From the IMG/VR virus record IMGVR_UViG_2721755725_000006: a stretch of DNA of 50,823 nucleotides. One strand, written 5' to 3'. Source of the DNA: a virus (Duplodnaviria > Heunggongvirae > Uroviricota > Caudoviricetes). Below are positions 1 through 3,000 of this stretch, piece by piece (the first letter of the stretch is position 1; the number at the start of each line of letters is the position of its first letter). Position numbers: made by a program.

Positions 1-3000
1 CGTCAACCTCATCAGTCGGAGTTTCTTGCTAACCAGCGATGCGCGCCAGCTTCGGTTTTAAACGTTTTACTTTTGGTATACGTCATCGCGGTAAACGTAC
101 CGTCCTGGTTGGGAAACACGCCGCATACCAGAGATTCGCTGTTGCCAAGATCGATAGTATCCATGCTGACCTCATTTCCCCTTAACGCCGGGGTAGCGGA
201 ACAAAAACCTGCTGCATAGTTATTAAAGTTGAACCCTGCCGTCATGTTCTTACGCCTCGGGCTGGCTACTTACCCCCTGACCACTGCCTGGTAACTCGAA
301 GTATTGCCCTGCGTTCTGTGGGACGGGGTGGGTTGGTATGAAAGGAAGGATACCCATGGGTATTTAAAAAGTAAATACCCATGGGTAATTTTTTGATGTG
401 TCTTAACTGGTGACTGGTTGTTTGGTGAGTTATGATGCGTTTTGTGCTTTCTTTTTACGGATTTCTTCGTAGATCATATTGTAATACTGTTTTTTCTCTT
501 CAAGAGTTTTTAATAAGTTATCCGCTTCACTTTCTGGCAGTTCGTCTAAGAGATCTAAAAAAATACGTTGTCGTGGCGTTAGAACCCTTGTTTCATAATT
601 GGAGGCTGTGTTCGTTGATGATGAAACGATACCATCCATCCATCCCCGGGGTAACCCAAAGGACTCTTCTATAATCTCCACCATATCATCAGCGATCCGT
701 TTTTTTCCTTTTTTCCCCTCTGGGTACAACATTCTTGATACATAAGAAGGCTCGCGACCGATCTTTCTGGCCACGTTAACCGCTTTACCATCGCATTTCT
801 CATCACGAATTTTGATGAGTTGTTGTCGTCTAAATTCATATTTGTCCATAGGTAAATAATAGATGCGATTACCGCAAGGTAAACAACCCAAGGGTATTGA
901 CTTTTGTTTACCTGTGGGTATTCTTGCTGTGTTTACTAAGGAGTAGCTATGGAAGAATTAAGAATATTTCTCAATTCTCTTTCGTCAGATGAACAGCGTA
1001 TGTTTGCATGTGAGTGTGGTACTAGCATCGGTTATCTAAGAAAGGCATTGAGTAAAGGTCAAATGTTAGGGGCATCGTTATGTGTCCTTATTGAGCGAGC
1101 CAGTAATGGTGAAGTTACACGTCAGCAACTAAGGCCTTTTGATTGGATGAATATTTGGCCCGAGCTGGAAGATACCAAAACGTTAACACAACCACTTACT
1201 AGGAGCTTGATTCATGAAAATCAAGCATGAACACATCCGCATGGCGATGAATGCCTGGGCGCGTCCTGATGGCGAAAAAGTTCCAGCAGCTGGAATAACC
1301 CAGGCTTATTTTGAGTTGGGTATGACGTTTCCTGAACTGTATGACGACAGCCATCCGGAAGCCCTGGCTCGCAATACCCAGAAAATTTTCCGCTGGGTAG
1401 AGAAAGACACCCCTGATGCAGTTGAAAAAATTCAGGCGTTGTTACCAGCGATCGAAAAGGCAATGCCACCTTTGCTGGTGGCCAGAATGCGCAGCCACAG
1501 TTCAGCTTATTTTCGGGAGCTGGTGGAGACGCGGGAGCGACTGGTGAGAGACGCTGATGATTTTGTCGCAGTGGCAATCGCCGGTTTCAATCAGATGAAC
1601 CGTGGTGGCCCGGCAGGAAATGCTGTGGCAGTACATTGACTGACAATAGCCGTATCGAATCGCTTCCGGCAACTCGTGAGTAAAAAGATTCGGTATCAGA
1701 AGAGGTGAGTATGGCTAACGCCTGGCTCAGATTATGGCATGACATGCCAAATGACCCTAAGTGGCGAACAATTGCCAGGGTGTCAGGGCAGCCAATTGCA
1801 ACAGTGATGGCAGTGTATATCCACCTCCTGGTGAGCGCGTCACGAAATGTCACGCGAGGTCACATTGATGTCACGACAGAAGATTTGGCAAGTGCGCTCG
1901 ACGTGACAGAAGAGGTAATTGATTCAATTTTGCAGACGATGCAGGGGCGGGTACTTGATGGTGATTTAATCACTGGATGGGAAAAACGCCAGGTGCTTAA
2001 AGAGGACAACGGCAATATTTCGCAAACCGCAAAATCTCCTGCAGAGCGCAAGAGGGCGCAGCGAGAGAGGGAAAGAAAGCGGGAACAAAATGGCGATTGT
2101 CACGGCGCGTCACGAAATGTCACGCACATGTCACGACGAGTCACGACAGATAAAGATACAGATAAAGATACAGATCAAGAAGATCAAAACACTATGGTCC
2201 ATGGCGTAAAAAACGCCACGAACCAGGCAGGGGATGTTCAGACCGTCAATCCTGGTCAGCCAGCAGGCACGACACCGGAAGCCGATTCAGCGTATGCGCT
2301 GAAAGCCGATTCGGGCGCTGTGCAGCAGGTGATGACCGCAAGGCCGGAGCAATCACACCAACTGCAGCAGCCTGAAGCCGATTCCGCCATTCAGCGGGAA
2401 GCCGATCGGGTAGTCCCGGAAAACACCGGGCAGCCTGTGGGACGAGTGGATTATCCGGATGTGTTCGAACAGGTCTGGCGGGAATACCCGTTGCGTGCTG
2501 GGGCAAACCCGAAGAAATCCGCTTTCAGTGCCTGGAAGGCCAGATTACGCGAGGGGGTGCCACCAGAGGCCATACTGGATGGTGTGAGGCGTTACGCAAG
2601 ATACCTGGCGGCTACCGGGAAAACGGGAACGGAATTTGTTCAGCGAGCGACGACGTTTTTTGGGCCGGACCGGAATTTTGAAAACCCCTGGTTGCTCCCG
2701 GTAAGCGGCACGAACAACCAGCGTTGTGTGAATCATATTTCTGAACCGGATACCGAAATTCCGCCGGGATTCAGGGGGTGATGTGGCATGAAAAACATTG
2801 CGGCAGCCGGGGTTCTTGAACGTATTCGCAGACTTGCACCACAGGCGTCGGTTCCACCGTACCGGACGGTGGAGGAGTGGCGGGAATGGCAACTTGTTGA
2901 AGGACGAAAACGCAGCGAGGAGATTAACCGCCAGAATCACCAGTTGCGGGTGGAAAAAATCCTGAATCGTTCGGGCATCCAGCCTCTGCACAGCAAATGC

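Follow-up and report, generated by a model that had tools for sequence, protein, structure and literature searches.

Comparison with described switches

In phage lambda, the repressor and cro genes diverge from a right operator (OR) of three sites, two strong ones over the rightward promoter (PR) and a weak third over the repressor promoter (PRM); a second operator set, the left operator (OL), lies at the leftward promoter (PL) beyond the repressor gene, and the immunity-specific block is flanked by sequence common to heteroimmune phages. This arrangement recurs in the immunity region of the caudovirus DNA analyzed here, IMG/VR record IMGVR_UViG_2721755725_000006 (50,823 bp, the whole of which we call the window), as do, by prediction, the ranking of the sites by strength and the leaderless repressor mRNA. 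In it, five sites of the form TACC-N4-GGTA, two (OL1 and OL2) beyond and three (OR3, OR2, and OR1) in front of the gene of a 139-residue repressor, are very probably the cognate operators of that repressor, a reading that rests on site position, conservation, and co-variation with the DNA-binding domain.

The likeness to lambda extends to OR2, which in the window is centered about 41 bp upstream of the predicted PRM start; lambda CI at OR2 activates PRM from about that position. The differences lie in the size of the sites (12 bp against 17 bp), in the number of OL sites (two against three), in the distance between OR2 and OR3 (15 bp center to center against 23 bp), in the repressor, which has no S24 autocleavage domain, and in the role of CII, which is taken by a YdaT-type protein. 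Moreover, unlike in lambda, no N gene or boxA is present downstream of PL in the window. In the build of the individual sites the nearer likeness is to phage 434 (ACAA-N6-TTGT), as 4-bp invariant arms enclose a variable center that differs between strong and weak sites. The central bases of the 434 operators, which are not contacted, are said to tune affinity, in work by Koudelka, Harrison and Ptashne from 1987. Arm sequence and spacing are nevertheless different from those of 434, indirect readout at the window sites is something we only infer, and no kinship between the proteins is implied.

Also alike is the PaaR2/YdaS/YdaT switch of CP-933P in E. coli O157:H7 (PMC8630535, PMC9986795), with its small non-cleavable repressor, leaderless repressor mRNA, YdaS-type Cro and YdaT-type CII. 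There, too, OR separates the divergent genes and PL/OL is found past the other end of the repressor operon; a YdaT operator occupies the ydaS/ydaT junction, and the window has a perfect copy of it at 1207–1224. The CP-933P operators, however, are 18-bp repeats with the consensus half-site GTTTAGTAA, so that we rejected them as the same code and regard them as analogous only, and the window has no paaA2-parE2 behind its repressor. The 933W operators were rejected on similar grounds, being 15 bp long, odd in length, and different in sequence (PMC3317979). The switch of the window is a well-supported case of an already known type, and its TACC-N4-GGTA operators differ from the published operators of CP-933P and 933W. 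With the Rac prophage of Escherichia coli K-12 the window shares the order of repressor, cro-like, YdaT, and replication genes, a DUF1391 gene to the left, and a YdaT protein 33% identical to that of K-12 (E 2e-16), whereas the repressor is unrelated to RacR (BLASTP E 2.3).

Among named phages, mEp043 and CharmingMan are the closest that carry this DNA-binding domain; their N-terminal repressor domains are 76% and 70% identical to that of the window, with the stretch REPSYVSRML identical in all. Both have the same five TACC-N4-GGTA sites, at −72/−47/−32 from the repressor start codon in mEp043 and −73/−48/−33 in CharmingMan, each with the OL pair in addition. They differ from the window in their repressors of about 225–228 residues with a C-terminal GDSM motif, as in S24-type homologs, and mEp043 also in a gene N and a lambda-type CII. 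The operators are annotated in neither GenBank record, that of mEp043 labeling its cI “similar to 933W CI,” and the papers on mEp043 do not treat them. In the open-access literature searched, no paper contained TACCCATGGGTA (the OL sequence) or related strings, and no publication of the motif was found.

Two further non-cleavable repressors resemble that of the window in part. DicA of the Qin prophage is alike in the C-terminus but not in the N-terminal domain, and Rep of the Salmonella phage SPC32H (5d50) has the same overall two-domain fold at only 16% identity. Rep is inactivated by an antirepressor.

Five operator-like sites around the repressor gene

The two left sites, OL1 (351–362) and OL2 (376–387), are identical perfect palindromes of the sequence given above, 25 bp apart from start to start. 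The three right sites are OR3 (870–881, TACCGCAAGGTA), OR2 (885–896, AACCCAAGGGTA), and OR1 (909–920, TACCTGTGGGTA), which start at −32, −47, and −71 from the repressor ATG within the 99-bp gap between the repressor and cro-like genes, a gap that also holds two promoter-like hexamer pairs. All five positions, and that of the hexamer TTGACT (897–902), read exactly as a preliminary description of this DNA had placed them; the hexamer, however, which had been described as overlapping the sites, sits between 885–896 and 909–920 and overlaps neither.

The pattern TACCNNNNGGTA (TACC-N4-GGTA) has four exact matches in the window, all of them inside 351–920, against 0.26 ± 0.56 in shuffled versions of the window, none of which (0/100) reached four. 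When one mismatch is allowed, OR2 is the sole extra match in this region, and 14 further matches lie elsewhere in the window against 10.35 expected by chance; operators elsewhere were thus rejected, since these matches are at chance level only. A sixth site at 843–854 (TGTCCATAGGTA) was also rejected as a chance match, as it has three mismatches, overlaps the ATG, and is not kept in relatives.

Conservation of the sites across related loci

We gathered 41 related loci by the repressor N-terminal domain alone, from one-genome-per-species contigs (245,665 bp). They come from Edwardsiella, Klebsiella, Pantoea, Yersinia, other Enterobacterales, Aeromonas, Neisseria, Burkholderiales, Xanthomonas, Stenotrophomonas, and others, and their domain identity ranges from 82% down to 38%. 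The palindrome, for which the preliminary description had proposed a search of related prophages, recurs in this diverse set as the same motif in the same layout: exact TACCN4GGTA occurs 114 times where about 3.7 would be expected by chance in the whole set, with 58 matches in the upstream intergenic region (OR), 54 in the downstream pair, and only 2 elsewhere.

Counted from the repressor ATG, the upstream sites of the family begin at −73, −48, and −33. That at −73 (OR1) is exact in 33/41 loci and has one mismatch in three more, with the center consensus YRYR. The OR2 site (−48) has at most one mismatch in 26/41 and at most two in 32/41 loci, and its outer arm almost always shows the same deviation (GGTT or GGGA), in the window as well. 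The OR3 site (−33) has at most one mismatch in 33/41 loci; its center departs from YRYR, and degeneration of its arm to AGTA recurs. The divergent arrangement of repressor, operator, and promoter is kept in 36/41 loci. The downstream pair is present in 33/41, always 25–26 bp from start to start, at 42 to 2,168 bp after the repressor stop, a distance that varies with the other content of the repressor operon. The architecture proposed in the preliminary description, an OL-like pair 3′ of the repressor and a three-site OR facing a cro-like gene, is thus borne out by positional conservation, and further by the haplotype variation and module swaps set out below.

Two variants within the family were seen. 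In four Klebsiella loci (L006, L009, L010, and L012) and one of Orbus (L036), sites and OL pair are kept without OR2 and without a YdaS-like cro, the Klebsiella sites lying at −73 and/or −33 and that of L036 at −49, which makes for a variant switch architecture. In L011, L013, L016, and L022 (also L015 and L017–L019), an inverted repeat, for example ATTACCTGAAATTTCAATCAGGTAA, followed by ACTTTTAC, with its TACC…GGTA arms 14 bp apart, is conserved upstream of the OL pair, about 45 bp from the proximal site. The window has no such repeat, which may serve in those loci to terminate the repressor transcript or as a third OL element of an unusual kind.

Variation and exchange of the probable operator sites

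Variation over a short evolutionary range was examined in 83 close relatives, which make up 38 haplotypes of window positions 340–930; a position was counted if it varies in at least two haplotypes. By this count 1/40 positions in the arms are variable, compared with 12/20 in the centers and 15/111 in the other intergenic DNA. The sole variable arm position is 873 in OR3, and the variant it gives is the same AGTA that recurs in the OR3 of distant relatives. In OL1 the center base 358 varies in 31/38 haplotypes, and the arms vary in one haplotype only, at 351. Since most E. coli copies carry the change at 358, so that their OL1 reads TACCCATAGGTA on the plus strand, the two perfect palindromes are specific to the sub-lineage of the window. 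The centers (355–358, 380–383, 874–877, 889–892, and 913–916) thus vary more than the rest of the intergenic DNA, with the arms almost frozen; this hypervariability could reflect affinity tuning, diversification, or recombination of cassettes.

Exchange of the sites can be followed in the heteroimmune phages Tritos and 666R9, which share with the window the stretch from 177 to about 343 (the predicted PL leader) and the C-terminal coding region of the repressor, from 430 to about 560 (about 80% identical), but whose repressors carry an N-terminal domain of XRE type that is unrelated to that of the window. In place of the 80 bp of OL1, OL2, and PL, both have a block with two copies of GTACT-N4-GT[TA]C, a motif that also recurs in the OR of Tritos. 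On the left, the sequence is again homologous to that of the heteroimmune phages from about 343, close to the predicted +1 of PL, and on the right from about 1202; the immunity-specific material consists of about 344–425 and about 560–1200. As OL is replaced in these phages and the segment between it and the DNA-binding domain is kept, the two are exchanged as a pair.

Predicted promoters and their alignment with the sites

The rightward promoter PR is called by a promoter scan as sigma-70-like, as is PRM, with the −35 hexamer TTGACT at 897–902 and the −10 hexamer TATTCT at 919–924, a 16-bp spacer, and a predicted start at about 931 (plus strand). OR2 abuts its −35, and OR1 extends over the spacer and into the −10 (−23 to −12 of PR). 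In the relatives, read in the orientation of the repressor, GTCAA, the reverse of the TTGAC of the −35, directly precedes OR2 and is 85–96% conserved; in the logo of the OR1 flank, where the −10 begins with the TA of OR1, A2 and T6 of the −10 are kept at 86%.

On the minus strand, PRM has TTTACC at 878–883, overlapping an arm of OR3, and TATTAT at 856–861, the end of which lies 7 nt ahead of the A in the repressor ATG. OR3 lies at −32 to −21 of the PRM start and overlaps the −35, and OR2 lies 1 bp upstream of this −35; OR2 occupies −47 to −36 of both PR and PRM. Almost all relatives have TTTACC or TTTACT at the place of the PRM −35, spanning the 3-bp gap and the first arm of OR3. The repressor mRNA is predicted from the sequence to be leaderless, with its start at the A of the ATG. 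That a −10 with A2 and T6 ends 6–8 nt before the ATG in 28/37 loci, and that a Shine–Dalgarno-like 4-mer precedes the ATG in only 5/37, indicates that leaderlessness is a feature of the family; it is experimentally established for lambda cI and for paaR2 of CP-933P (PMC8630535).

The leftward promoter PL, of which the preliminary description made no mention, is predicted from our own reading of the sequence, in register with the relatives: TTTACT at 370–375 and TATCCT at 347–352 on the minus strand, with a 17-bp spacer and a start at about 340. The −10 begins with the last TA of OL1, which as the promoter-proximal operator would cover about −22 to −11, and OL2 lies directly upstream of the −35, at about −47 to −36. 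Upstream of OL2, at −54 to −48 of PL, is a UP-element-like A-tract (AAAAAAT, 388–394, minus strand). Directly behind the proximal OL site, 26/33 relatives have a hexamer that agrees with TTGACA in 4/6 or more positions, and the −10, formed by the last TA of the distal site and the next four nucleotides, has A2 and T6 in 31/33, with a spacer of 17 bp. The 14 nt upstream of OL2 contain AAAA in 20/33 relatives, compared with 6.6% of background 14-mers. The GenBank record of mEp043 places a “putative PL” exactly between and over the downstream pair, followed by gene N, and two of the loci (L005 and L024) have a boxA-like CGCTCTTTAACAA after the pair.

The predicted PL leader (165–343, minus strand) contains a stretch, 177–343, that is about 88–95% conserved in heteroimmune phages, ahead of first genes that differ; in 666R9 the gene behind it is a YdaG-sized one of 44 codons. 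The leader has a CCCC…GGGG hairpin at about 186–201, just upstream of the ribosome-binding site of the 50-codon gene that follows in the window. No boxA was found in 177–343, and an Rfam search of it gave no match.

Proposed regulation

On these positions, a repressor dimer would read the invariant TACC/GGTA arms through its helix-turn-helix domain, and the four central bases, not contacted themselves, would tune the affinity, being YRYR in the presumably strong sites OL1, OL2, and OR1 and of other sequence in OR2 and OR3. With OR1 and OR2 on either side of the PR −35, and OR1 also on the start of the −10, their occupancy would shut off PR. OR2, just upstream of the PRM −35, has the class-II-activator position used by lambda CI, from which PRM may be activated, and OR3, over the PRM −35, would be a weak site for autorepression at high repressor level. 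PRM would start at the A of the repressor ATG and so give a leaderless mRNA. On the left, OL2 and OL1 bracket PL in the geometry of OR2 and OR1 at PR (site, −35, 7 bp, site overlapping the −10), and their occupancy would keep silent the leftward operon, that is, the DUF1391 gene here and ydfB, ydfC, and dicB beyond it in related genomes; looping between OL and OR, if any, could be added to this. By the lambda paradigm the Cro-like protein encoded at 949–1230 is expected to act on the same operators. Silencing by the repressor probably applies to the YdaS/YdaT genes as well as to the leftward operon with dicB.

Several points weigh against reading the five sites as the operators of the repressor. 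Three of the loci (L025, L041, and L045, with 68%, 42%, and 38% domain identity) have no TACC-N4-GGTA at the expected places, which may be due to diverged specificity or a non-prophage context. The arms, 8 bp apart from center to center, are short for a classical helix-turn-helix dimer, and the flanking T/A positions may belong to the site. The centers of OR2 and OR3 are closer by far than the 23 bp of lambda, and with 15 bp between them the autoregulatory logic may differ, for instance through mutually exclusive or opposite-face binding. The PL hexamers of the window match only 8/12 consensus positions, below the threshold of the promoter scan, which is why the scan missed PL. Finally, a search of the literature found no binding, footprint, or transcription-start data for the repressor or members of its family.

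The OL hairpin and other explanations of the sites

OL1 and OL2 together with 4 flanking bp form a 37-nt inverted repeat (351–387) with a 16-bp stem and a 5-nt loop, which the preliminary description did not mention. The fold has −24.5 kcal/mol as repressor-sense RNA (z −7.2) and −27 kcal/mol on the plus strand, where the stem is followed by ATTTTTT (T6). A terminator scan calls the element on both strands and nothing else of the kind from the repressor stop (430) to OL2, and the commonest variant, that at 358, still pairs on the sense RNA by a G–U wobble, all of which, with the strength of the folds, would suit an intrinsic and possibly bidirectional terminator that ends the PRM transcript or an incoming rightward one and is like an operator only secondarily. 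We nevertheless consider it very unlikely that termination is the primary role. In the 33 relatives with the pair, the OL centers pair no better than shuffled partners do (1.41 against 1.47 Watson–Crick pairs, p 0.70), and the folds are far weaker (−7 to −18 kcal/mol), so that the formation of a hairpin is not what is conserved. The tail on the sense strand, UCCUUCCUUU, is a poor U-tract, the T-run on the plus strand is the complement of the A-tract that is kept upstream of OL2 whatever the strength of the hairpin, any palindrome present in two copies must form a hairpin, and the pair is in exact promoter register and is swapped together with the DNA-binding domain. The hairpin is therefore probably a by-product of the operator pair. 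Because there is no other terminator between stop codon and OL2, the pair could still serve two functions, as operators and, in the lineage of the window, as a tImm-like hairpin that would terminate part of the PRM transcript and guard against read-through into the dicB-containing operon. The scan and the folds speak for this as they do for a terminator proper, and so does the presence of separate terminator-like hairpins upstream of OL2 in L021, L044, and others, where the window has none. The weak U-tract of the sense strand and the restriction of the hairpin to one lineage speak against it, and repressor bound at OL could instead act as a roadblock, which leaves such a double role a possible but rather unlikely one.

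That the palindromes are bound mainly by the YdaS-type Cro-like protein or a host factor, and not by the 139-residue protein, is likewise very unlikely. A Cro homolog is co-inherited with the DNA-binding domain and the OR sites in 33/41 loci, and Cro uses the same operators as the repressor in lambda-type switches. The Klebsiella and Orbus loci without a Cro homolog, however, keep sites at the same positions, which shows that the motif follows the repressor domain and not Cro; the loci were, moreover, collected through the repressor domain alone, and the sites change with the DNA-binding domain of the repressor, although cro changes too. A sub-threshold Rfam match of the palindrome pair to a miRNA hairpin was dismissed as meaningless.

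A chimeric repressor and a family-wide code

The repressor gene runs on the minus strand from an ATG at 849 to a stop at 430, with the same start as in the PGAP annotation of identical genomes; there the product has 139 residues, not the 140 of the preliminary description, and the name “hypothetical protein.” In an AlphaFold2 model (pLDDT 84.7) it has an N-terminal helix-turn-helix domain (residues 1–73), a disordered linker (77–87), and two C-terminal helices. A Pfam search gave no match for either domain and no S24 peptidase domain. The protein matches PHROG 5736 (“transcriptional regulator”) end to end (E 4.8e-70). To its last 55 residues the NCBIfam DicA model aligns with its own C-terminus (E 2.6e-5), at a score of 24, well under the cut-off of 101. 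The best fold match in the PDB is the Rep repressor of the Salmonella temperate phage in the Rep–Ant complex (5d50; Foldseek E 9e-4), with XRE, C-protein, HigA, and lambda-repressor folds among the lower-ranked, non-significant matches; a sequence search of the PDB returned nothing significant.

Residues 1–73 are 70–85% identical to the N-terminal domains of many S24/LexA-type repressors of 221–242 residues, and alignment shows that these homologs share only this part with the window repressor, the C-terminal halves being unrelated. Over 74 residues the domain is 66–85% identical to that of 14 diverse homologs, with the invariant stretch REPSYVSRML…KKRIADDM…GW.D of an MDKYE-type family. The repressor is thus a chimera, in which a DNA-binding domain known from S24/LexA-type repressors of many genera is joined to a C-terminal domain (88–139) common to the CI of Tritos and 666R9 and to DicA, which carry other DNA-binding domains.

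The preliminary description had taken the sites to define the immunity specificity of this prophage. As the TACC/GGTA arms and REPSYVSRML, the sequence of the recognition helix, are common to the window, mEp043, and CharmingMan, and this stretch is near-invariant in the 15 aligned domains, the arms are instead a family-wide code and not a private immunity. Since the same code is found with repressors across gamma- and beta-Proteobacteria, it could serve for the automatic annotation of switches and the prediction of cross-immunity, and cross-immunity with mEp043-like phages is a testable prediction from the common arms and recognition helix.

As to induction, autocleavage stimulated by RecA is impossible as a route, the repressor having no S24 domain. 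By analogy with Rep, an antirepressor is a possible route. Neither a LexA box nor an antirepressor gene was found, however: the window has no match to the LexA box with fewer than two mismatches, and no antirepressor gene is annotated in a genome (see below) that is identical to the window over the 931 bp of the immunity region. A wider reading would join these strands, and we offer it as a whole tentatively, as one that may well not hold. One code and one DNA-binding domain would be fused to at least two kinds of C-terminal domain, SOS-cleavable S24 and non-cleavable DicA-like, so that a defective prophage, with its cassette in about 15% of complete E. coli genomes, would provide SOS-proof cross-immunity to inducible phages that use this code, mEp043 being one; indirect readout of the hypervariable centers would set private differences of affinity, and, as a lesser part of the same reading, the identical OL palindromes would double as a terminator of the repressor transcript.

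The analysis provides an operator and promoter map (OL1–2 and OR1–3, with PL, PR, and a predicted leaderless PRM) for a widespread E. coli cassette whose repressor goes under the name of a hypothetical protein, and it documents domain shuffling between DNA-binding and induction-sensing halves, with OL exchanged along with the DNA-binding half. As the switch follows the classical logic of lambda, the gain in concept is modest, and somewhat more interest attaches to the family-wide code and the domain shuffling than to the window itself.

Neighboring genes and prophage context

Rightward of OR lies the cro-like gene (949–1230, plus strand, 93 codons), which homology searches relate weakly to YdaS: the YdaS model PF15943 scores 25.9 bits against a cut-off of 30, BLASTP against K-12 YdaS gives E 9e-7 over 44 residues, and some copies are named “YdaS family” by PGAP. 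It is followed by the YdaT-family gene (1214–1639, plus strand; PF06254, 39.6 bits against a cut-off of 21), a replication-type gene of 358 codons, and a DnaC-like ATPase gene. The perfect copy of the YdaT operator (TTGATTCATGAAAATCAA, 1207–1224), within which the ydaT start codon (1214) falls, is located where the cro-like gene ends and is the sole exact match in the window to 5′-TTGATT-N6-AATCAA-3′, the operator defined by footprinting in CP-933P (PMC9986795). Its presence suggests a PRE-like element, under the control of YdaT, that would drive leftward transcription toward the repressor gene.

Leftward, the preliminary description had named a 77-codon open reading frame (12–245) as the first gene. 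That the DUF1391 gene (YdfA/YdaF-like) is the first of PL stands, but it probably begins further in, as the 50-codon form annotated by PGAP (12–164, minus strand), and the extension to 245 is doubtful on the sequence evidence. The Pfam match to DUF1391 covers only residues 29–76 of the longer form, mEp460 is homologous only as far as about 203, and the gene that starts in 666R9 at the position corresponding to 164 is another one; PHROG 751, which matches residues 10–77, is compatible with the longer form. In related genomes ydfB, ydfC, and dicB lie beyond this gene.

Copies of the immunity cassette (window 300–1230) with at least 95% identity occur in 829 of 5,426 complete E. coli genomes, those of O157:H7 and O111 strains included. 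One genome, NZ_AP018802.1, is identical to the window over these 931 bp, and the element there is a lambdoid prophage. Judged by that annotation, matched over 300–1230, the prophage of the window appears to be defective and to carry cargo: the integrase and exonuclease genes left of the immunity region are annotated as pseudogenes, there are IS1203 and IS66-family insertions and a frameshifted tape-measure gene, and the element carries a Hok/Gef toxin gene, genes for tRNA-Arg, tRNA-Arg, and tRNA-Ile, and, at its far end, the type III effector gene nleC.

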